Positions 7-63,860 of a stretch of 64,000 nt of DNA are shown here, one piece after another (position 1 is the first letter of the stretch; the number at the start of each line of letters is the position of its first letter). The notes under the pieces are model-generated. The model worked only from the letters and a program-made list of their open reading frames with translations. It did no database searches and was not told the DNA's origin. The stretch is from Candidatus Lloydbacteria bacterium RIFCSPHIGHO2_02_FULL_50_18 (GTDB lineage Bacteria; Patescibacteriota; Minisyncoccia; Phycocordibacterales; UBA6899), in the NCBI GenBank assembly GCA_001821395.1, contig MHLM01000001.1, forward strand, positions 144,021 through 208,020. The letters run 5' to 3'. The position numbers and the translations under genes were made by a program.

Positions 7-2223
7 ATGATACTTATTGAAAGCATGTCAGTAGCAATGAAAAACAAAACGCTGGTCATTGTCGAGTCACCGACAAAGATCAAGAAGCTTGAAGCCTACC
101 TTGGCGATGACTACATCGTCCTCGCTTCCGTTGGACATATTCGCGACCTCCCAAAATCCAATAAGGTCGCTATCGATATCGATGGCGGTTTTGTACCGCA
201 TTATGAAATTGTTCCGGGGAAGGACAAGGTGGTTCGCGAACTCAAGGAGGCGGCGAAGGTCGTCAAAGAAGTCCTCCTCGCAACCGACCCCGACCGCGAA
301 GGCGAGGCTATCGCCTGGCACATCGTCGAAGTCCTCGGCCTAAAAAATGCAAAACGTATCGTATTTCATGAAATCACTGAATCTGCAATACAAGAAGCGG
401 TGAAACACCCCCGTCCAATCGATGAAAACCTCCGCCAGGCACAGGAAGCACGACGCATCCTTGATCGTCTCGTAGGATATGACCTTTCGGGACTTATCTG
501 GAAAAAAGTTCGCTATGGCCTCTCTGCGGGACGCGTGCAATCCCCGGCGCTCCGTATCATCATGGAGCGGGAACGAGAGATCCGTGCGTTCATTCCGGAA
601 ACATTCTGGAGACTGACCGCGGACGTTGCGACCGCAAAAAAAGAACCATTCACGCTCACCTGTAGCGAGGAGCCGAGAGACAAAGAACTTGTAGACAGGA
701 TCCTCAAAGAAGGAAAGATGAATGACTGGTATGTCCTCGAAGTGAAAGAAACCCAGGTTGCGCGCACGCCGAAGACTCCTTTTACTACCTCAACACTCCA
801 GCAGTCCGCATCAACTCGACTCGGACTGTCCCCCTCGCGCACGATGCAGATCGCACAGAAACTTTATGAGGCCGGACTCATCAGTTATATGCGTACCGAT
901 AGCACCAATCTCGCGCAAGAGGCGCAGAAAGAAATTCTCGCTATGATCGAAAAGACCTATGGCAAGGAAAAGGCGATGGCACGTACCTACAAAACGAAGA
1001 GCAAGAATGCACAAGAAGCACATGAAGCAATTCGTCCCACGAGCGCATCAAAGAAAAAGGCGGGACTAACTCCAGAGCAGCAAAGTCTCTATGCCCTGAT
1101 ATGGGAGCGCACGATCGCATCGCAGATGATCGATGCCACCACATTGCGTACAAAAATAGTGGCGAATATAGAGGGAGCAAAGCAGCCAATTCCCGATTTT
1201 CATGCGAACGGATCGCGTATCATCGCAAAAGGATGGCTCGAAGCGGATCCCGATGCCGCTGGCGAAGAAGTCACTCTTCCAAAAGTTTCATCCGGAGATA
1301 AGCTCATACTAAAACAGCTCGACGCCCTCGAGAAGCAAACCGAACCGCTTCCCCGTTACACCGAGGCGGGTCTCATTAAGGAGCTCGACAAACGCGACAT
1401 CGGTCGACCGTCGACCTATGCTTCCATCCTCCGGACCATCACCACGAGAGGTTACGTGAATAAAGAAGGCAAGACGCTCATACCGACTGATACCGGGGAT
1501 GTCGTCAGTTCATTCCTCGAACAACACTTTGCCAAATACATCAGTGACACATTCACTGCAGAGATAGAGCAAAAACTCGATGATATCGCCCTCGGGAAAC
1601 GAAAATATGCAAAGACGCTGAAAGAATTTTATGATCCATTCAAAAAAGATGTGAAATCGAAAGATAAAATTGAGAAGATTACCAACCTTGGTGAGGCACC
1701 GATGGGACTGCTTTGTCCAAAGTGCGGCGGCAATATGATCATCAAGCTCGGCAAGAACGGCAAGTTCTTATCATGCGCAAAATTTCCGGATTGTGACGGA
1801 TTGCGCGGTATCGACGGACAAGAGATCGAGGGCCCCCGTCTCACCGGAGAAAAATGCCCCGACTGCGAGAAGGGTGACCTCATCGAGCGCGAGGGTAAGT
1901 TCGGACGATTCATTGCTTGTGCAAACTATCCGAAATGCAAATACATCAAAAAAGATGCCAATCTTAACCCGGTCACCTCAAGCGGAGTCAAATGTAATAT
2001 CTGCAACGAGGGCGACATGATCGAGCGACGTGGCAGATTCGGGATATTTTGGTCATGTTCGAACTATCCGAAATGCAAACATGCGATCAAGGCGAAACCG
2101 ACGGGGAAATTATGCCCAATGTGCCAAGCACTCATGATGGAAGGTACGAAAACAATTCCCGAGAGATGTTCAAAAAAGGAGTGCCCCAACCATAACCCGC
2201 ACAAGCTCAATAAACCCAAATAG
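7..2223 (+). CDS. topA: DNA topoisomerase I. Toprim N-terminus (VIVESPTKIKKLEAYLG), catalytic Tyr region (LISYMRTDS), and four C-terminal Cys4 zinc ribbons (CPKCGG, CPDCEKG, CNICNEG, CPMCQA). True start probably at M of MKNKTLVIV (near 37).
   Basis: 738-aa ORF; Topo IA motifs read directly from the translation. Confidence 0.9.
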   Translation: MILIESMSVAMKNKTLVIVESPTKIKKLEAYLGDDYIVLASVGHIRDLPKSNKVAIDIDGGFVPHYEIVPGKDKVVRELKEAAKVVKEVLLATDPDREGEAIAWHIVEVLGLKNAKRIVFHEITESAIQEAVKHPRPIDENLRQAQEARRILDRLVGYDLSGLIWKKVRYGLSAGRVQSPALRIIMEREREIRAFIPETFWRLTADVATAKKEPFTLTCSEEPRDKELVDRILKEGKMNDWYVLEVKETQVARTPKTPFTTSTLQQSASTRLGLSPSRTMQIAQKLYEAGLISYMRTDSTNLAQEAQKEILAMIEKTYGKEKAMARTYKTKSKNAQEAHEAIRPTSASKKKAGLTPEQQSLYALIWERTIASQMIDATTLRTKIVANIEGAKQPIPDFHANGSRIIAKGWLEADPDAAGEEVTLPKVSSGDKLILKQLDALEKQTEPLPRYTEAGLIKELDKRDIGRPSTYASILRTITTRGYVNKEGKTLIPTDTGDVVSSFLEQHFAKYISDTFTAEIEQKLDDIALGKRKYAKTLKEFYDPFKKDVKSKDKIEKITNLGEAPMGLLCPKCGGNMIIKLGKNGKFLSCAKFPDCDGLRGIDGQEIEGPRLTGEKCPDCEKGDLIEREGKFGRFIACANYPKCKYIKKDANLNPVTSSGVKCNICNEGDMIERRGRFGIFWSCSNYPKCKHAIKAKPTGKLCPMCQALMMEGTKTIPERCSKKECPNHNPHKLNKPK

Positions 2224-2440
2224 GTAGCTTGCAATCTGCATTGCAAGCGGAAAATTGTTTTTGTGAGACGGAGCATTGTTTCGCCAGCAGGCGAAACGCG
2301 AGTCGGGGTCGCGAGCGTTTTCGTTCGACGGAACGAAAACGACTTGTGACCAAAAACTATTCCCGAACGATGCAGCAAGAAGGAGTGCCCGAATCATAAC
2401 CCCCACAAACTGAACAAGCTCACATAACACAAATACCACC
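2224..2440 (+). repeat. About 125-nt hairpin-rich insert (2224-2350) followed by a diverged duplicate of the last 66 nt of topA (2352-2420). The duplicate encodes IPERCSKKECPNHNPHKLNKLT*; the gene ends IPERCSKKECPNHNPHKLNKPK*. Same element family as the tRNA-linked repeats (motifs TTGTGAGACGGAG, GAGTCGGGGTCGCG, TTGTGACC).
   Basis: Direct repeat of the gene 3' end visible in the sequence. Hairpins gcttgcaat/attgcaagc, gtttcgcc/ggcgaaac, cgttttcgttc/gaacgaaaacg. Confidence 0.6.
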
Positions 2441-4094: not shown

Positions 4095-5270
4095 CTAGAT
4101 CGAAAAATTGCTGACCGAGTAGAGAGCGTCGTCTTCGGACTCATCGGTCTTTTTTATCTCACCTTCTGCTTCCGGTATCGCTTCTCGGTCACCTGGAGGC
4201 TCATGATGCTCATCGTCGGAAATATCGGTACTGAATCGTTGGAACGAGTCGAGGTGGTCGGGGGCGTCATCAAGAGGTATGAGCGGGGCTTGCGGAGCCT
4301 CAAACGGCGCAAAAGAATGTCCATCACGGGGAATGACCTCGTCGTGCGATATGCGAATCGGAGTACTCTCCTCGAGTGTTTTCATTGCCTTGCTTGTGTC
4401 CGATGCGGCGGTCGAGGCTTTACGCAGCAGTGAAAGCTGTTCGGAAAAATGCACCTTATCGAGCAATGCACGCAGGTCATCACTGGAGAAGAAATCAATG
4501 ACCAACTTTCCGCCCCCTACCTGTCGACGTTCGATGGAAACGCGCGTTCCTAGGGTTTCCGCAAGCTCCTTTTCAATGAGCTCCATCTCGGGATCGCGAG
4601 GGATCTTGCTGCGTACCCGCTCTTTTGCGATGTGCCGCGCGATCTGTTCTGCCTCCCTCACGGTGAGCTTTTTGAAAAGAATTTCTTTATAGAGCGTATT
4701 CTGTTCTTCTTTTCGATCGGTAAGCATCATCAAAGGGCGTGCATGCCCCTCAGTGATGCGCCCCTGCGCAAGCGCATCGAGGATCTCTTTCGGAAGTACG
4801 AGCAATCGCAATGTATTCGAAACATACTCACGACTCTTCCCCACTTTCTTTGCGATCTCAGTGTGCTTCAAGCTAAATTCTTGTGCAAGCCGCGCAAATG
4901 AAATAGCGCGATCAACGGGATTGAGGTCTTCGCGCTGCAAGTTCTCGATGATGGCGAGCTCGAGCTTGAGACGCGGATCGGTCACCGCCTGAATGATAGC
5001 CGGCACACGCAAGAGTCCCGCAAGCCTGGAGGCGCGCAAACGACGCTCTCCTGCGATGAGTTCGTATTCCACGACCATTCCCCCATCAGGTAGCTCAACT
5101 TCGCTTCGCGTGACGACGAGCGGCTGAAGCACCCCATACTGGCGGATAGAGTCTGCAAGGTCACGCAAATGAGCTTCGTCAAACTCTTTTCTCGGCTGAT
5201 AGGGATTCGGTTTGATCTTCTCGACTTCGATCCAAAAAATGGCGTTGTTTATAAATTCAGACATGCGCAC
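4095..5270 (-). CDS. parB: Chromosome partitioning protein ParB/Spo0J (KIKPNPYQPRKEF, GERRLRASRLAG) with an acidic C-terminal tail.
   Basis: ParB box motifs in the translation. Confidence 0.85.
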   Translation of the reverse strand: MRMSEFINNAIFWIEVEKIKPNPYQPRKEFDEAHLRDLADSIRQYGVLQPLVVTRSEVELPDGGMVVEYELIAGERRLRASRLAGLLRVPAIIQAVTDPRLKLELAIIENLQREDLNPVDRAISFARLAQEFSLKHTEIAKKVGKSREYVSNTLRLLVLPKEILDALAQGRITEGHARPLMMLTDRKEEQNTLYKEILFKKLTVREAEQIARHIAKERVRSKIPRDPEMELIEKELAETLGTRVSIERRQVGGGKLVIDFFSSDDLRALLDKVHFSEQLSLLRKASTAASDTSKAMKTLEESTPIRISHDEVIPRDGHSFAPFEAPQAPLIPLDDAPDHLDSFQRFSTDISDDEHHEPPGDREAIPEAEGEIKKTDESEDDALYSVSNFSI

Positions 5271-5362
5271 ATTCTAGCATAGAACCACCCGCCGCAATGA
5301 TGTGTACAAAGTGTTGATGAGTTTGATTTTTGGATGCGAGTTCGTTACACTATCCCCACAAG

Positions 5363-5400
5363 CTGGAGTGGCGGAATGGTAGACGCGTGAGGTGCTGGAT
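5363..5400 (+). pseudogene. 5' fragment of a tRNA-Leu. It matches 25 of 26 nt to the start of the tRNA-Leu(CAA) gene 215 bp downstream. There is no anticodon or T-arm half.
   Basis: gctggagtggcggaatggtagacgcg vs gccggagtggcggaatggtagacgcg. Confidence 0.5.
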
Positions 5401-5575
5401 TAGCGAAGCAGCGCTTCGCAAGCACCGCAAGGTCGGAGCCATGTCGAGGCTTTGTGAGACAGGCGAGACGGGGTCGCAAGAACTTATGAGCGAAGCGAAT
5501 TAGTTACTTGAGACCGACGTAGTCGTGCGCAGTGTGGATGTCGTGAGAATTGTTCAAAAAAATAAATAGTTCGTA
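5401..5575 (+). repeat. tRNA-linked element copy (core TTGTGAGACAGGCGAGACGGGGTCGCAAG, hairpin gcgaagcagcgcttcgc) between the tRNA fragment and tRNA-Leu(CAA).
   Basis: Motifs shared with 2262-2350, 9362-9532, 57225-57420 and 63270-63300. Confidence 0.5.
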
Positions 5576-5577
5576 TT

Positions 5578-5658
5578 GCCGGAGTGGCGGAATGGTAGAC
5601 GCGCACGACTCAAAATCGTGTTTCGAAAGAAGTGAGGGTTCAAGTCCCTCCTCCGGCA
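5578..5658 (+). tRNA. tRNA-Leu(CAA), type II with a long variable arm. The 3' end is ACA; CCA is not encoded.
   Basis: Cloverleaf folded by hand. Acceptor gccggag/ctccggc, anticodon loop cuCAAaa, T-arm gaggg-ttcaagt-ccctc. Confidence 0.85.
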
Positions 5659-5663
5659 CATTT

Positions 5664-6060
5664 TGAAAAATCAGCCCATGTGGGCGATTTTTCTTATGTG
5701 CCGGAGAGAAAGTGCTCTGCGGCACTTTCGTGAGGGACTTGAAAAGCTTTGCGATGTTTATAAAGAATTCTTATTCTGAATAAACCGCAAGGGTGTACTG
5801 ACCGAGTAGCGGTCAAGTCCCCTCTTTCTTTGACAAAAAACGTAGTAACTCGTGACCAAGTCTGATACCCTTGCGTGCTTTCGTGAGGGACTTGAAAGGG
5901 ATTTCGATATTTTCAAGGAGCCATGCTCCGAGAAAATCGAAATCCACCTGGCGAAGTAATCGCCAAGTCCCTCGTTAATTGCATCAATAAGACCTAGTGA
6001 TTCGTGACCAAGTCCGAGAGTACTGCTCGGCTTCCGTGAGGTGACCCACTAGAGACGCGC
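5664..6060 (+). repeat. tRNA-linked elements, about 2.5 tandem units. Terminator hairpin 5666-5692. Mirror copy of the tRNA 3' end split by a hairpin (tgtgccggag[agaaagtgctctgcggcactttcgt]gagggacttgaa, 5697-5742). Core ATTCTTATTCTGAATAAA ... GGGTGTACTGACCGAGTAGCGG. Direct copies of the T-arm (tcaagtcccctc, ccaagtccctcg, ccaagtccgag).
   Basis: Read directly from the sequence; the same architecture recurs at 10 other loci. Confidence 0.7.
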
Positions 6061-6142
6061 ATGATTGTACCTGCGCATTGCACTCATACATATTCTCAAG
6101 TAGAGTTGACTCAGAATCTCATAGTCAATTTACGGAGGAAAA

Positions 6143-6622
6143 ATGCAACAAATATCGTCCCTCGGTGAGCTTTCGGCGATACAAAGTACCGCACTCGATG
6201 AAGCACTTCTAGTGCTAGAAAACTCCTACAATCCCTATTCTCACTTTTGTGTCGGGGCATGCCTCTATACACAAGACGGAAAACTGGTATCCGGAACAAA
6301 TGTCGAAAACGCTGCGTATGGTTCAACCATTTGCGCCGAACGTTCCGCCATTTTGAGTGCAAATGCACTCGGAATCAGACGATTCATTGGCATTGCGATC
6401 ATCGCGCGCGGAGAAAATTTCGACACAACGGAAGTCACTGGTCCGTGCGGAAGCTGTCGGCAAATGCTTTATGAACTTTCGCAAATTTCGAACTGCGACC
6501 TAGAGATCGTTCTTTCGACGTCAAAGAAGGATAAGATCATCGTAACAACAATCAAGGAACTTCTCCCGCTCGCCTTTGGCCCAGTTGATCTCGGCATCGA
6601 CATCACCAAGTATCAAAAATAA
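6143..6622 (+). CDS. cdd: Cytidine deaminase. Zinc ligands CAE and PCGSCRQ. RBS GGAGG 6 nt upstream of the start.
   Basis: 159-aa ORF with the CDA zinc-binding motifs. Confidence 0.8.
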   Translation: MQQISSLGELSAIQSTALDEALLVLENSYNPYSHFCVGACLYTQDGKLVSGTNVENAAYGSTICAERSAILSANALGIRRFIGIAIIARGENFDTTEVTGPCGSCRQMLYELSQISNCDLEIVLSTSKKDKIIVTTIKELLPLAFGPVDLGIDITKYQK

Positions 6623-8360: not shown

Positions 8361-9293
8361 CTATTCCTCGCCCATATATTCGGGCGGGAGAACAAAGACG
8401 TGATAATGCGAACGCTCAATGATGAACAGAATTTTATGCTTTTGTTGATCGGCGATAAGCCGGGCCTCAAGCCATGCGCGTTTCTGTTGACCAATATCCT
8501 TCAGACCGAGATCAAGCGAGGACCCACTTGTATGGGTGGAGCACAGAAATGCATAGCGACAGTCTGCGGGCGATAGCCCTCGCCTCACCTCTTTTGCCTG
8601 ATCCTCAAAGGAGCGAATCATCGAAGTAACGCGAAGCGGAACGAAATGCTCACCGGCCTGCTCTTCCAGCGCAAAATGCTGATGCATATCATGAGCAAGT
8701 CCCGCGATATAATCGCGCACCCATGGACGAGTGAACCTCCTGTCGGGAGGGATCTCTTTTGACACCACTTCAACGTAAGGAGACGATATCTCCACAAGCT
8801 GACCTCCCGCTTCACGTCGGATATCCGCGAGATCGCGATATCCTCGAAGCCGAAATGTGCGCGCGAGACAAACTTCATGCCCATGATGCGCCGTGGATCC
8901 GCGCAGTGCGGACCAAAAGGCCCTGAGTCCGTTTTCCTCGCGTGCGGTCTGCTCTCGAAACACGAAATCCACTACAGCTCCAGTGCGATTCGTCTCAGTC
9001 ACATGGCGGATGCATTCCGAAAATGCATCACGTATCGCCTCTTGCTTCGAGGAAAGCAATAGCTTCGCACCAAGCGGCACTCGAGATGGATCGGCAACCG
9101 GTGGCAGCTTATTCTGTCTCACTTTGTGCTTTCCGGACCGTTGGGGCTTCTTTACCTTCTTGCACAGCTTTTGTTTATGATTCTTCCGGCACTCCGCGCG
9201 AACGGACGTGTACTCCGTAGCCGGTGCGGCAAATGTGCTTCCAAAAAGGAGCACCATGAACAAAGCGGCTATCGCTCGTGCAATATGCTTCAT
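8361..9293 (-). CDS. Secreted peptidase M15-like protein (VanY/D-Ala-D-Ala carboxypeptidase fold). Signal peptide; motifs STHTSGSSLD (SxHxxGxAxD-like) and ERSHYH.
   Basis: Signal peptide plus partial M15 zinc-ligand motifs; assignment tentative. Confidence 0.45.
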   Translation of the reverse strand: MKHIARAIAALFMVLLFGSTFAAPATEYTSVRAECRKNHKQKLCKKVKKPQRSGKHKVRQNKLPPVADPSRVPLGAKLLLSSKQEAIRDAFSECIRHVTETNRTGAVVDFVFREQTAREENGLRAFWSALRGSTAHHGHEVCLARTFRLRGYRDLADIRREAGGQLVEISSPYVEVVSKEIPPDRRFTRPWVRDYIAGLAHDMHQHFALEEQAGEHFVPLRVTSMIRSFEDQAKEVRRGLSPADCRYAFLCSTHTSGSSLDLGLKDIGQQKRAWLEARLIADQQKHKILFIIERSHYHVFVLPPEYMGEE

Positions 9294-9361
9294 TGCGTTC
9301 CCCCTTCAAAGAAACCTCTACGTTCACGCTAACATGCCTTAGGGTTTGCGCAAGGAGAGAA

Positions 9362-9532
9362 ATCAGCGGGCCCACGAGGAATCGATCGCAGTACCGTTCG
9401 TTGCGGTCACAGATAATTTCCTCGCCGTCGCACGGAAATTTCCGCGACCCCGACTCGCAACCTCGCTTGCTAGCTCGGTATCAGCTCCGTCTCCCGCAAA
9501 GCGAAAAACTGCATTCGCAGTTATTTCGTCTT
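9362..9532 (-). repeat. tRNA-Trp-linked element. Core GAGTCGGGGTCGCGGAAATTTCCGTGCGACGGCGAGGAAATTATCTGTGACC, hairpin CGGTACTGCGATCG, direct copy of the tRNA 3' end (cgattcctcgtgggcccgc, 9362-9385), partial mirror tgcggg...gagtcgggg.
   Basis: Read on the minus strand. Confidence 0.6.
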
Positions 9533-9534
9533 TG

Positions 9535-11326: not shown

Positions 11327-11329
11327 CAA

Positions 11330-11372
11330 ATAAAATGAGCATCCCTTCCGAGGGATGCTCATTTTATTATGC
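11330..11372 (+). terminator. Perfect hairpin aaataaaatgagcatccc-ttccga-gggatgctcattttatt.
   Basis: 17-bp perfect stem. Confidence 0.65.
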
Positions 11373-11374
11373 GT

Positions 11375-11640
11375 AGAGCAAGCGAAGCTTGCGGGCAGGA
11401 TTCGAAGACCCTGAGTTTATCGTAGCGAGCTTGTCCTCAAGCGATGCGAGATTCGAAGGGTGTACTGTCCATGTAATGGAAGAAACTCCTGCCCTTTCAA
11501 TATGGCTTCCGGCAGGATTCGAAGCCGTTCTCCCATGTTTTTGAGCGATGGCTTTGCATCGTGAAAAAATGGGCGACATTGTTTACTTGCGAACAAACCG
11601 ACCCTATGGTCGGTTTTACGTATGGTGTCCAGATATATGC
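11375..11640 (+). repeat. tRNA-linked elements. Mirror of the tRNA-Tyr 3' end split by the hairpin gcaagcgaagcttgc. Core GGGTGTACTGTCCATGTAATGG plus direct copy agaaactcctgccc. Then a second partial unit whose mirror (ggcaggattcgaagccgttctcccatgtttttgag) is identical to the tRNA-Lys element at 24738-24775. Ends in the hairpin aaaccgaccctatggtcggtttt.
   Basis: Read directly from the sequence. Confidence 0.6.
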
Positions 11641-23882: not shown

Positions 23883-23955
23883 CCCTAAAACATTTTGTTG
23901 CAAAATGTTCGGGCGATCATTTTGCAACAAAATGATTTAGCCATGAACAAATGCT

Positions 23956-24036: not shown

Positions 24037-24038
24037 CA

Positions 24039-24205
24039 AAGTAAATAAATCCCTGATGGGATTTATTTACTTTGTGCCCGGGAGAAAGCAAGCTGCCTTG
24101 CTTTCGCGTGGGAGTCGAAGCCCGTTTCGTTATTTGCGAAGAATTCCTATTCTGAGAAAATCGAAATGGGGTGCTGACCCAGCAAAGATCGAACCTCCCA
24201 CGTTA
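24039..24205 (+). repeat. tRNA-linked element. Terminator agtaaataaatccc-tgat-gggatttatttact. Mirror tgtgcccggg[agaaagcaagctgccttgctttcgc]gtgggagtcgaagccc. Core GAATTCCTATTCTGAGAAAATCGAAATGGGGTGCTGACCCAGCA. Direct copy gatcgaacctcccacg.
   Basis: Read directly from the sequence. Confidence 0.7.
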
Positions 24206-24697: not shown

Positions 24698-24700
24698 CAT

Positions 24701-24880
24701 AAAAAAATCCGCGACAAGCGGATTTTTTTATGGTGCCCCCGAAGAAGTGCCCTGCGGCACTTCTGGCAGGATTCGAAGCCGTTCTCCCATATTTCTGAAT
24801 GATTCATATCATGAGGAAATGGGAAACGGGTACTGACGCAGTAGGCGTCGAAACTCCTGCCGTGAGATTTCAAAAGACTG
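24701..24880 (+). repeat. tRNA-linked element. Terminator aaaaaaatccgcgacaagcggattttttt. Mirror tggtgcccccg[aagaagtgccctgcggcacttctg]gcaggattcgaagcc. Core GTTCTCCCATATTTCTGAATGATTCATATCATGAGGAAATGGGAAACGGGTACTGACGCAGTAGGCG. Direct copy tcgaaactcctgccgtgag.
   Basis: Read directly from the sequence; the core is about 80% identical to the unit after tRNA-Val(GAC). Confidence 0.7.
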
Positions 24881-25152: not shown

Positions 25153-25400
25153 CAAAGAAAACCGCGTAAGCGGTTTTTGTGTGCCCAGAGCGACTGAATA
25201 CTACAAAGAGTACTTCATTTTTCTAAAGCAGAATACTGCTAAGAAAAATTGGTCGCACCACAGAGAGTACTTCATTTTTCTAGAGCAGAATACTGCTAAG
25301 AAAAATTGGTCGCTGCTTCAGTCGCGCGAGAGGACTTGAAGCCGTTCTCCTGTATTTTTGAAGATTTCTTAATCTGACAGGTAGCCCAAATCTTGCACGC
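25153..25400 (+). repeat. tRNA-linked element. Terminator aaaaccgcgtaagcggtttt. Mirror tgtgcccagag[~130-nt insert]gagaggacttgaagcc. The insert is a hairpin (gcgactgaa ... ttcagtcgc) whose loop holds 2 x 52-bp tandem repeats (AGAGTACTTCATTTTTCTARAGCAGAATACTGCTAAGAAAAATTGGTCGC). Core spacer GTTCTCCTGTATTTTTGAAGATTTCTTAATCTGACAGG.
   Basis: Read directly from the sequence. Confidence 0.65.
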
Positions 25401-25438
25401 CAGTCTCTACGTAATCATCATGGATAGATTCATGATGA

Positions 25439-56297: not shown

Positions 56298-56600
56298 CAA
56301 GAAAAAGCCCCATTGGGGGCTTTTGATTTGTGGGCGAAGAAAGCCAACTGCTTGGCTTTCGCTGGAGGAGTCGAAAAGCTTGGTGATGTTTTTGAGAAAT
56401 TCATATTTTGAAAAAACCACCAAAGTATACTGTCCCCGTAGGGGAAGACTCCTCGATTCGTGACCGACTATTCTGTTGTCTGCATGACTTTCGTTAGAGG
56501 AGTCGAAGACCTTCTCCCATATTTTTGAGGATTTCCTAATCTAAAAAATGTGAAAGGGGTACTGACGCAGTAGGCGTTGAATCTCCTCTATCACCCACGC
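56298..56600 (+). repeat. tRNA-linked elements, 2 units. Terminator aaaaagccccattgggggcttttt. Mirror tgtgggcga[agaaagccaactgcttggctttcgc]tggaggagtcgaa. Unit 1 core GTATACTGTCCCCGTAGGGGAAGACTCCTCGATTCGTGACC. Unit 2 is about 80% identical to the tRNA-Lys unit and ends with a direct copy ttgaatctcctctatcacccacg.
   Basis: Read directly from the sequence. Confidence 0.7.
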
Positions 56601-57087: not shown

Positions 57088-57425
57088 ACCTAGGACGCAA
57101 CTGCTTGCGTCCGTGGAGGATTTGAAAGGATTTTCATTATCGAGTCCGCGAGGTTGAAAATCACCTGCGGCGGTAGCCGAGAATCCTCCAGGGTGCACAA
57201 ATCAGACACAAAACCTTCCCTGCGGAAGGTTTTGTGTCTGATTTGTGAGACAGAGTCATGTTTTTTCAGCAGAAAAAACAGACGAGTCGGGGTCGCGGAA
57301 ATTTTCGAGTGGCGACGAGAAATTATCTGTGACCAAGGATGGCTTTTCGTCATCGAAATACGAAACCCGTACCACTCCCGTAGGGAGAGAAATTCCTCCA
57401 GGGGTACACCATCAGCAAGAAATTC
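57088..57425 (+). repeat. tRNA-linked elements. Hairpin ggacgcaactgcttgcgtcc. Partial mirror gtggaggatttgaa. Direct copy 1 cgagaatcctccagggtgcaca. 20-bp perfect hairpin aatcagacacaaaaccttcc/ggaaggttttgtgtctgatt. Core TTGTGAGACAGAG ... GAGTCGGGGTCGCGGAAATTTTCGAGTGGCGACGAGAAATTATCTGTGACC ... CCCGTACCACTCCCGTAGGGAGAG. Direct copy 2 gaaattcctccaggggtacacc.
   Basis: Read directly from the sequence. Confidence 0.65.
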
Positions 57426-62742: not shown

Positions 62743-63229
62743 AGCTATTATTTATTTATTGATAACTTGTTAATTTAACTTACTGACCCCTTAGGGTGCG
62801 GGTCACGTGATATATACGCGATGCGTGTAATGATCCACGGATCAAATTCAACGATGATAACAAGCATGGTCGACAGCCATCCTTGCACTTCGATAATAGT
62901 AACATACTTATTCTCCAATAAGTTAATGCTATGCTTTAAAGCTACTATACTTTATTTATATCATTCCCCAGCCTATCAAACGAACAGATTTTAAGGCCTC
63001 CACGATGATCAGGTCATTGATTATTACAAATAAATGTTTATGCTGTCCGGCGATCTCCCCAACATTCGCGTTGCAGGCATCCGTATAAACAATGGAGCCT
63101 CGCGCACCTTGCGCAATATCATTCATATGTGACAAATATATTGACAGGGTCGTCGCGATTGGTGATGACGATGGGTGCATGGTCCGACATCATTCCGCTC
63201 AACAAAATAACCGCCTAAAGCGGTATTTT

Positions 63230-63434
63230 GTACGAGCGGAGATGAGAGGATATTCGGTCACAGGTTACTAAGCCTTTTAGCGCAAAGCCTACTAAAAGTC
63301 TAAGTATCTTCGACCCCGACTCGGCGACAATACTTTTCAAAACTAAAGTATCGTAAACCGCCTCCGTCTTTCGAATCCTCTCATCTCTCGCAGTGATAAA
63401 TTAAAAAAGACCTTACGGTCTTTTTTAAACCACC
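63230..63434 (-). repeat. tRNA-Ser-linked element. Terminator aaaaaagaccttacggtctttttt. Unsplit mirror tttcgaatcctctcatctctcgcag. Core GCCGAGTCGGGGTCGAAG ... CCTGTGACC. Direct copy gaatatcctctcatctccgc (63238-63258).
   Basis: Read directly from the sequence. Confidence 0.6.
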
Positions 63435-63436
63435 TG

Positions 63437-63679: not shown

Positions 63680-63860
63680 CTAGTACAAATATGAGCACTC
63701 GTCGAGAGTGCCTTTTTGTCTGTGACCCCAAGTGAGTAAGCTACTTTGCTCACGTCAGATAATCGAAGCCTTTTCCATTATTTGTGAAGGATTCCTATCC
63801 TGAATAAATTGGAAAACGGGTACTGCTCCTATAGGGAGAGATTCTCTGTTGATTCTAGTG
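63680..63860 (+). repeat. tRNA-linked element. Terminator gagcactc-gtcgag-agtgc. Mirror tgtgacc[ccaagtgagtaagctactttgctcac]gtcagataatcgaagcc. Core GGATTCCTATCCTGAATAAATTGGAAAACGGGTACTGCTCCTATAGGGAGAG.
   Basis: Read directly from the sequence. Confidence 0.55.

Follow-up and report, generated by a model that had tools for sequence, protein, structure and literature searches.

Target-matched, non-coding hairpin elements stacked behind tRNA-Leu(CAA) and other tRNA genes of a Candidatus Lloydbacteria genome

In tDNA islands the target gene is regenerated and its displaced native fragment is left as a direct repeat (PMC4383910), and in islands that integrate at dusA it is the 5' end of the gene that is replaced (PMC4482086). 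Here we analyse a 64-kb stretch of DNA from an ultra-small groundwater bacterium, Candidatus Lloydbacteria (hereafter the window; all coordinates refer to it unless a relative is named), in which the tRNA-Leu(CAA) gene is accompanied by short, hairpin-rich repeats without open reading frames (ORFs), each holding an inverted segment that matches the adjoining gene. The principle 'integrate into tRNA and restore' matches that of tDNA islands; neither the scale of the units nor their additional features have been described for such islands. On balance, and with moderate confidence, we interpret the locus as a stack of miniature, non-coding, hairpin-rich integrative cassettes located at T-loop-like sites and mobilised in trans. 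The best reading of the window as a whole is that such cassettes are present at nearly all tRNA genes of the Lloydbacteria genome, and the units have the appearance of miniature mobile elements of a kind not described before.

Like tRNA and tmRNA islands and prophages (Islander-type, with tyrosine integrases), the units split and restore their target, have junctions in the T-loop and accrete in tandem at one tRNA. The combination of a regenerated target and a direct repeat that characterises tDNA islands was found both at tRNAs (copies of 8–22 nt) and in topA (a 75-nt duplicate). Unlike such islands, however, the units are 100–250 nt long, carry neither an integrase gene nor kilobase cargo and stand at almost every tRNA, with cores shared between targets and an inverted, target-matched segment that takes part in a covarying fold.

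Integron attC sites and the CTX-phi attP(+) site used by XerCD are active as folded single strands. The units resemble them in that structure prevails over sequence, in having imperfect stems with conserved mismatches or bulges and a variable loop, and in that one strand folds; like attC elements they are small, can be ORF-less and occur in arrays. In contrast to attC, they have no GTTRRRY/RYYYAAC core and no attI or dif target, no IntI gene was found in the window, 20–75 nt of the target gene is duplicated, and the arms of the fold are themselves copies of the target. A segment of the element that is complementary to the target across the insertion point is also a feature of the bridge (seek) RNAs of IS110/IS1111 and of the pairing between exon-binding and intron-binding sites (EBS–IBS) in group II introns, and by this analogy target specificity could in principle be reprogrammable. 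Unlike IS110, the units are ORF-less, and neither a DEDD/RuvC-like transposase nor a reverse transcriptase was found among the 36 large ORFs checked in the window. The bipartite two-loop guides of IS110 are replaced by one contiguous or hairpin-split complement of the sense strand, 12–23 nt in length, and a long gene end (20–75 nt) is duplicated, whereas IS110 shares 0–2 nt at the junction. The domain structure of group II introns is absent from the units, as is any corresponding Rfam match.

Miniature inverted-repeat transposable elements (MITEs), cis-mobilizable elements (CIMEs) and the tycheposon arrays at Prochlorococcus tRNAs (bioRxiv 10.1101/2020.12.28.424599) share with the units a non-coding or integrase-less make-up, an enzyme that is located elsewhere and arrays parted by partial tRNA repeats. 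The units differ from MITEs in having no fixed terminal inverted repeats and no short (2–10 bp) target-site duplication; their 'inverted repeats' are derived from the target and differ at each tRNA. They are much smaller than CIMEs or tycheposon satellites, and the sequence that they take from the target is present both directly and inverted. The group I introns of tRNAs in Patescibacteria interrupt the anticodon loop (PMC13011429), a location different from that of the units, and were rejected as an explanation.

Ten of the eleven tRNA genes in the window carry modular elements directly downstream and on the same strand, and no ORF of meaningful length was found in any unit. Besides Leu(CAA), the affected genes are those for Trp, Tyr, Leu(TAA), Lys, Leu(TAG), Val(GAC), Val(CAC), Ser and Glu; the only one without a unit, tRNA-Cys, lies 71 nt upstream of the next tRNA. 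The modules follow the order tRNA, a terminator palindrome running into the acceptor 3' strand, b', a hairpin (H), a', a core and a*. The b' segment is the inverted acceptor 3' strand plus trailer, a' is the inverted T-loop plus T-stem 3' strand, and a* is a direct copy of the T-loop and T-stem that at times extends through the acceptor strand. Cores measure 60–110 nt, the repeats lie 100–250 nt apart, and the direct copies of the tRNA 3' end are 8–22 nt long. At tRNA-Leu(CAA), the focal locus (5362–6060), we distinguish two core families, type 1 and type 2, with covariance models R1 and R2, in the following arrangement.

5362–5387, plus strand: copy of tRNA-Leu(CAA) nt 1–26, 25/26 identical (repeat finder; conserved in the relatives L001, L004 and L005)
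5388–5452, plus strand: conserved stem-loop segment of the upstream composite, GGTGCTGG..CCAGCACC then GGAGCC..GGCTT (four-genome alignment; fold)
5453–5519, plus strand: type 2 core, TTGTGAGACAGG then hairpin HP2 (GGGGTCGC..TTGAGACC) (R2 match 5461–5519, 69.2 bits, E=3.5e-15)
5521–5530, plus strand: AGTCGTGCGC, inverted copy of tRNA nt 24–33 (repeat finder; invariant in four genomes)
5578–5659, plus strand: tRNA-Leu(CAA) gene (ARAGORN and Rfam)
about 5663–5695, plus strand: intrinsic-terminator-like hairpin AAAAATCAGCCCAtgtGGGCGATTTTT, centre of a palindrome that continues into the tRNA acceptor strand
5696–5706, plus strand: b', ATGTGCCGGAG, inverted acceptor 3' strand plus 3 nt of genomic trailer (repeat finder, 100% complementary)
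5707–5731, plus strand: hairpin H, AGAAAGTGCtctgcGGCACTTTCGT (a module that recurs at other tRNAs with covarying stems)
5732–5743, plus strand: a', GAGGGACTTGAA, second inverted piece of the tRNA 3' end (100% complementary)
5732–5825, plus strand: type 1 unit 1, with a' at 5732–5743, a three-way-junction core and a* at 5814–5825 (R1 match 5732–5823, 97.9 bits, E=6.5e-20; covariation)
5837–5865, plus strand: truncated 3' half of a type 2 hairpin, CGTAGTAACTCGTGACCAAGTC (direct repeat; weak R2 match 5800–5861)
5878–5974, plus strand: type 1 unit 2 (subfamily 1b), with an H remnant, a' at 5885–5896 and a* at 5963–5974 (R1 match 5885–5973, 78.7 bits)
5989–6060, plus strand: second truncated type 2 3' half (5989–6017), then a decayed remnant (CGTGAGG, 6035–6041) (direct repeats)

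The initial annotation of this locus, made from the sequence alone, had reported a fragment of the tRNA 5' end upstream, an element core, a terminator, a hairpin-split inverted copy of the tRNA 3' end and T-arm-like copies. All of these are present, with coordinates that differ by at most 1 nt: the 5' fragment (25 of 26 nt) starts 216 nt before the tRNA, the hairpin GAAAGTGC-tctgc-GCACTTTC sits between the two inverted tRNA 3'-end pieces, and T-arm-like direct copies are found at 5814–5825, 5963–5974 and 6009–6019. The hairpin-split mirror is not the separate oddity for which it was taken, as such a module belongs to the standard make-up of every unit, in each case matched to the adjoining tRNA; nor is the locus a single integration hotspot, since the same family lies behind ten of the eleven tRNAs and in topA. 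Of the 'about 2.5 tandem units', two strong ones were recovered (R1 scores of 97.9 and 78.7 bits), and 'tandem' proved a loose term: Tandem Repeats Finder detected no array at the focal locus, and the direct repeats are gapped, with a spacing of 150–153 nt and 71–83% identity. Seven independent assemblies of the strain from ENA, Logan and JGI, one spanning the whole of 5271–6142 and the others parts of it, were 100% identical to the window wherever they covered this region. To the extent that independent short-read assemblies allow, this excludes an assembly artefact, the refutation that the initial annotation had named.

The inverted T-arm copies exceed chance, because the best inverted match to the 12-mer of T-loop and T-stem had 0–1 mismatches for 8 of the 11 window tRNAs, compared with 2–6, typically 4, at 52 control loci (up to 400 nt downstream). 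These controls came from unrelated bacteria picked up by a contig search with IF-2 (universal GTPase peptides).

Insertion with replacement of a gene end is seen at a protein-coding target.

2149–2427, plus strand: type 2 element in the topA 3' end (R2 match 2296–2355, between topA and relA)

This R2 match is the one that is not at a tRNA. The TopA protein encoded here is identical to that of Candidatus Lloydbacteria bacterium RIFCSPHIGHO2_01_FULL_49_22, a member of the Patescibacteria. The order here is ...GGTACG, the last 25 codons of topA with the stop (2149–2223), a hairpin with a CTGC loop, AATTGTTTTTGTG (2253–2265) and a type 2 core ending in CTTGTGACC; a distal copy of the 25 codons (2353–2427) follows the core directly, and the native terminator comes next. 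The two 75-nt copies differ at 18 nt, affecting 14 codons synonymously and 2 non-synonymously, the latter both within the last two codons. In the relative L001 topA is uninterrupted, and its terminator is orthologous to that behind the distal copy of the window, so that the distal copy is the native end and the proximal one arrived with the element from a diverged lineage. Both the element and the distal copy are present in the closest relative, L005. Between the distal copies of the window and L005 there are 11 synonymous and no non-synonymous codon differences, and the displaced topA end has therefore evolved as coding sequence. Recurrent or reversible insertion fits this better than one old event.

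The topA target itself resembles the T-arm of a tRNA. An empty-site allele would read GGAAGGTACG joined directly to AAAAACTATTCCCGAACG; the empty site in a relative, GGTACGAAGACC, resembles the T-arm GGTTCGAATCC (similarity 7/8), with GGTACGAA as the T-loop look-alike. Like the distal tRNA copies of type 2 units, the distal topA copy begins directly behind GTGACC. Across the junction, topA of the L008 type reads CACAAAAACAATT, to which the 13-nt AATTGTTTTTGTG is exactly complementary; inverted segments matched to their target are thus not confined to tRNA genes and occur at a protein-coding one too. In L008 and L009, topA is followed by the 5' part of the same type 2 element, which ends after about 30 nt; the roughly 600 nt that come next (12790–13270 in L008, and likewise in L009) carry small ORFs on the opposite strand and may be cargo or a later insertion.

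To define the cores we aligned 16 type 1 units and built R1 from them. The predicted type 1 fold is a three-way junction with invariant junction nucleotides. Its outer stem is formed by a' and a*; the long arm, P1, bears a purine-rich internal loop and ends in a small hairpin at its apex, and P3 is a hairpin whose loop is of the GUAA/GUAG type. Compensatory changes were observed in 18 of the 21 predicted pairs of this alignment. R1 recovers 32 copies in the window and close relatives, and has 11 matches inside the window; in the R1 alignment 93% of cells are paired and 19 of the 21 pairs are altered on both sides, as against a pairing of 33–57% in controls with slid partners. G.U pairs outnumber A.C combinations by 28 to 11, which places the fold on the strand with the sense of the tRNA, in the form of RNA or of single-stranded DNA (ssDNA).

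Type 2, the core pointed out in the initial annotation, starts with (T)TTGTGAGACRG, followed by a variable first hairpin closed by GAC/GUC and a second hairpin, HP2 (GGGGTCG...YGTGACC). The stretch by which it had been named, TTGTGAGACAGGCGAGACGGGGTCGC, occurs once, at 5452–5477. In type 2, 92% of cells are paired, 8 of 14 pairs show changes on both sides, and a G.U pair is kept in 10 of 12 copies. HP2 (mismatched 17/69) has a variable loop, unpaired columns 25 and 60, one per strand, and a further unpaired column, 65, on the 3' strand. R2 has six copies in the window.

Neither model gave a match in 1 Mb of unrelated bacterial control loci. When the window and the contigs L159 and L168 were searched against Rfam 15, at gathering and permissive thresholds, only tRNA reached threshold, and nothing relevant was seen at 5250–6150 up to E = 10. 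BLAST against phage and plasmid collections found nothing similar, and two pattern scans of IMG/VR returned chance or coding matches only; a viral origin of the units was dropped on these grounds. A promoter and terminator scan was uninformative.

The units are strictly associated with tRNAs and tailored to them. All 27 R1 matches analysed in the window and relatives lie 28–534 nt downstream of a tRNA and on its strand. Mismatches between the 13-nt a' and its cognate tRNA average 1.3, against 4.1 for non-cognate tRNAs; a' is also closer to the tRNA than to the a* of its own unit, and tracks a T-stem substitution at Leu(TAA) from CCCAC/GTGGG in the window to CCCGC/GCGGG in L174. A complement of the last 22 nt of the tRNA is present, with TGG included at Lys and the genomic trailer copied elsewhere (ATGTGCC at Leu(CAA)); at Leu(CAA) and Leu(TAA), b' extends into the complement of that trailer, and at Lys it reads TGGTGCCCCCG (GCCCCCG), compared with GCCTTCG in the tRNA 5' strand (two G.U pairs). 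A shrunken duplicate of the tRNA gene was ruled out as the source of the units, since b' complements the 3' strand and runs on into the trailer complement. The junction sequences are GTGACC|RAA and GGTTC|GAA, and distal tRNA copies begin at position 57, after GTGACC in type 2 or after the P3 3' strand (GCGTC, GGGTC or GATTC) in type 1. Most tRNA genes of the window end in discriminator-C-A followed by an A-rich trailer, Tyr, Lys and Val(CAC) being the only ones to encode CCA in full. A comparison of CCA in 14 copies, made as a test for an RNA-mediated origin, was inconsistent (3/14 one way, 2/14 the other).

Comparison with relatives revealed filled and empty sites. At tRNA-Leu(CAA) the window has units 1a and 1b with type 2 fragments, L004 has 1b and then type 2, each ending in a perfect CTCCTCCGGCACA, L008 has one 1a unit between perfect 22-nt repeats, and L006 has a decayed unit; L001 keeps the upstream composite and lacks the small downstream units. 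The first unit of L004 lies between the tRNA and the terminator that in the window directly follows the tRNA, which makes the two a filled-versus-empty pair. tRNA-Cys is occupied only in L176. Core subfamilies are common to different tRNAs across genomes; 1b, for example, is found at Leu(CAA), Val(CAC), Leu(TAA) and Lys. At the Lys locus the terminator palindrome and b' have been rebuilt with new sequence, with H, a' and the core retained. Clustering of the cores gave no sign of a recent intragenomic burst. The suggestion of layered insertions is borne out, in that inserts which duplicate the gene end stack beside the tRNA and the outer copies are older and more decayed.

Several further observations were made in the relatives. 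A large serine recombinase gene (Resolvase, Recombinase and Zn_ribbon_recom domains; 116–1833 in L001) overlaps the 3' end of tRNA-Leu(CAA). In L008, a long hairpin region (GGGTTTACTACTTTTGAAAGG ... CCTTTCAAAAGTAGTAAACCC) at 9100–9290 lies downstream of the Leu(CAA) unit and a 99-aa ORF. A third core type (GGGAAGGGGYCGGGAAAACGGGAGTTTTCCCGTGGCGGAAA...) occurs in distant contigs of the Candidate Phyla Radiation (CPR), at L151 5330–5616, L159 8440–8635 and L168 8880–9201, each time behind a single tRNA, with an inverted T-arm copy before it and a full direct copy of the tRNA 3' end after it. In two of the three the distal copy has a CCA that is absent from the gene itself, and no Rfam match was obtained (L159, L168). 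Many other CPR tRNAs, those of Taylorbacteria included, are without units. Contigs of the clade often stop inside tRNA-linked units (L001, L002, L003, L005, L009, L173 and L179–L184), which suggests that the unit repeats fragment short-read assemblies.

The units behind the remaining tRNAs of the window are as follows.

9340–9533, minus strand: tRNA-Trp; terminator, type 2 unit, direct copy of the tRNA 3' end (R2 match 9401–9460)
11329–11605, plus strand: tRNA-Tyr; terminator, b', H, a', type 1 unit, second partial unit (R1 matches 11395–11490 and 11512–11605)
24038–24203, plus strand: tRNA-Leu(TAA); 25-bp palindrome, b', H, a', type 1 unit (R1 match 24108–24199)
24700–24862, plus strand: tRNA-Lys(CTT); palindrome, b' (TGGTGCCCCCG), H, a', type 1 unit (R1 match 24766–24858)
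25154–25408, plus strand: tRNA-Leu(TAG); terminator, b', enlarged H, a', truncated type 1 unit (weak R1 match 25329–25408)
56299–56600, plus strand: tRNA-Val(GAC); two type 1 units, the second ending in a full direct copy of the tRNA 3' end (R1 matches 56364–56453 and 56496–56587)
57088–57410, plus strand: tRNA-Val(CAC); type 1b unit, 18-nt direct copy, terminator, type 2 unit, second direct copy (R1 match 57115–57189; R2 match 57280–57338)
63225–63435, minus strand: tRNA-Ser(CGA); terminator, contiguous 23-nt inverted copy, type 2 unit, 16-nt direct copy (R2 match 63252–63326)
63681–63850, plus strand: tRNA-Glu(TTC); terminator, b', H, type 1 unit (R1 match 63756–63848)

In the tRNA-Glu(TTC) unit a' and a* still pair with each other and have drifted from the tRNA sequence. 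The enlarged H of the tRNA-Leu(TAG) unit (25170–25325) holds an internal tandem duplication of about 60 nt, with GAGTACTTCATTTTTCTA.AGCAGAATACTGCTAAGAAAAATTGGTCGC present twice. A 17-bp perfect palindrome lies between tRNA-Cys and tRNA-Leu(TAA) (23885–23955); L173, with 95% IF-2 identity, has a 20-nt spacer instead, and the palindrome is therefore a recent insertion or expansion.

On the 5' side of tRNA-Leu(CAA), the composite at 5362–5577 consists of the tRNA 5' fragment, stem-loops, the type 2 core, AGTCGTGCGC, an AT-rich spacer and then the intact tRNA. We read the 26-nt copy at 5362–5387 as a displaced fragment of the tRNA 5' end. The fragment noticed in the initial annotation is thus real, and forms part of a composite that is kept in three relatives (L001, L004 and L005) and absent in two (L006 and L008). 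The complement of tRNA nt 24–33, AGTCGTGCGC, bridges the end of the duplicated 5' fragment, and the type 2 core shows a compensatory change from GGTC/GACC to GGCC/GGCC in L001. The predicted fold of the whole composite was no better than that of shuffled sequences (z = 0). By analogy with the dusA islands, it may represent a 5'-side insertion that displaced the native tRNA 5' end.

Taken as integrative cassettes, the units might behave as follows. Insertion would take place at a T-loop-like GGTWC|RAA, either at tRNA positions 53–59 or at the topA look-alike. The cassette would supply its own copy of the sequence from the insertion point to the gene end, usually together with a terminator, so that the target gene would stay intact, and the native gene end would be displaced downstream to become the direct repeat. 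Arrays would grow by repeated insertion at the regenerated site, followed by deletion or exchange between copies, and the proximal unit would be the youngest. The inverted target copy across the junction (a' and often b') and the gene-end copy would make the sense strand adopt the shape of a branched rod or a three-way junction, with the conserved core as its cap. By analogy with attC and the CTX attP, this folded single strand, ssDNA or RNA, may be what is recognised for recombination or target pairing, presumably by an enzyme that is encoded elsewhere and acts in trans. Since the tRNA arm cannot change, the perfect match of a' and b' is probably maintained by copying across the quasi-palindrome (template switching). 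Besides topA, the strict tRNA association, the target tailoring, the covarying structure, the filled and empty states, the sharing of cores between tRNAs and the lack of ORFs all support cassettes.

A number of points weigh against this explanation. Recombinase, transposase and reverse transcriptase genes were absent from the 36 large window ORFs checked, so the trans-acting enzyme is hypothetical. No free or excised form was seen, and there was no polymorphism among the seven assemblies of the strain; filled and empty sites were seen between species only. The scheme leaves unexplained how a new target-matched inverted segment is acquired. Several type 2 copies have no a' or no direct copy (Trp and the Lys locus of L174), and the upstream composite fits the scheme less cleanly than the 3'-side units do. 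A sequence-specific crossover is backed by just two enzyme-free observations, the 7-of-8 similarity between the topA site and the T-arm and the positions of the junctions. Finally, orthologous units are long-lived, with identities of 91% for the Tyr cores and 81% for the Lys cores between genomes whose IF-2 is 69% identical, and such persistence since a deep divergence could be equally compatible with a host function.

It is possible, rather than probable, that a', b' and AATTGTTTTTGTG act as a true guide, in which case the folded RNA or ssDNA of the element would base-pair with the gene end, the guide would be re-templated for each target and a small host or helper enzyme would carry out the insertion.

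A host function would make the units structured RNAs, 3' trailers or small RNAs, that pair with the last ~22 nt of the tRNA, control its folding, processing, termination or turnover, and are inherited vertically and co-evolve with it. The covariation and the G.U bias on the sense strand are in accordance with this, as are the retention of orthologous units between genomes at 69% IF-2 identity and the better fit of a' to the tRNA than to its own a*; a read-through transcript of the focal locus is moreover predicted to form a very stable fold with the 3' half of the tRNA (−115 kcal/mol, z = −9). We nevertheless think it unlikely, since pairing of this kind would unfold the tRNA, a strong terminator usually lies between tRNA and unit, and the element is also present in topA, where tRNA biology is irrelevant. 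Presence or absence and swaps of type at orthologous tRNAs, the many truncated or decayed copies, and the Taylorbacteria relatives and many CPR loci that do without units point the same way.

Rather unlikely, too, are RNA-mediated selfish elements of the retrozyme, short interspersed nuclear element (SINE) or viroid kind, whose unit RNA would be excised, with a' serving as the guide or substrate helix of a ribozyme, and reinserted by a reverse transcriptase acting in trans, the tRNA-complementary segment resembling a primer-binding site. The sense-strand fold with conserved G.U, the three-way junction with its invariant nucleotides and the extent of the inverted segment, which, as in a retroviral primer-binding site, covers exactly the stretch between T54 and the 3' end, would suit such elements, as would the CCA found in the distal copy and not in the gene at three distant loci. 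On the other hand, there were no Rfam ribozyme or intron matches and no reverse transcriptase in the window, b' copies the genomic trailer and not CCA at several loci, the CCA counts (3/14 versus 2/14) point both ways, and the synonymous divergence in topA is equally explained by DNA recombination. On inspection by eye a hammerhead was dropped, the CUGA-N-GA/GAAA core not being present, and so was a box C/D-like motif, the internal loop being merely a tandem purine mismatch.

A further alternative, in line with the integration hotspot of the initial annotation, is that the units are scars of large prophages or genomic islands at tRNA genes, deleted down to their attachment-site arms. A regenerated target with a displaced fragment is indeed the hallmark of tDNA islands (PMC4383910), the large serine recombinase gene of L001 abuts tRNA-Leu(CAA), and other DNA follows the topA-linked type 2 fragment in L008 and L009. 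We regard this origin as quite improbable all the same, as the same small, ORF-less architecture is found at 10 different tRNAs and across genomes, cores are shared by unrelated tRNAs, none of the phages or plasmids searched has similar DNA, and independent deletions would not repeatedly join a' to the same core. ORF-less units of 100–250 nt with a conserved, covarying secondary structure, which denotes maintenance, do not answer to the description of generic island scars.

Very unlikely, finally, is a purely mutational origin, with terminator palindromes beside tRNAs lengthened by replication template switching and neither element nor function involved: it would account for long perfect palindromes that reach from the terminator as far as the acceptor strand and have been rebuilt in another sequence at orthologous loci, and for the new palindrome between tRNA-Cys and tRNA-Leu(TAA) that is absent in a relative with 95% IF-2 identity, but it can generate neither cores that are conserved and covary nor the H module and the direct copies, cannot explain a topA insertion with a synonymously diverged gene end, and is largely refuted as a full explanation, even if the way in which a' and b' stay matched to their target may still be attributable to template switching.

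The target-matched inverted segment is the novel part of these cassettes. Thanks to the R1 and R2 models and the topA insertion, the question can be put directly to metagenomes and enrichment cultures that already exist. Were the guide reading true, the units would represent a natural, programmable, CRISPR-independent form of integration with minimal cargo, of possible relevance to genome engineering. The reduced genomes of the CPR would then harbour a new class of selfish element in every one of their tRNA genes. If the cassette explanation is correct, the principle of integrating and restoring would extend down to elements of about 150 nt, folding or guiding would tie the choice of target to a copyable segment of nucleic acid, and there would be a concrete reason why CPR metagenome assemblies break at tRNA genes. 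A symbiont genome of about 1 Mb would then tolerate dozens of structured, gene-less inserts, at least one behind almost every tRNA, each of which repairs the gene that it interrupts and matches its sequence.

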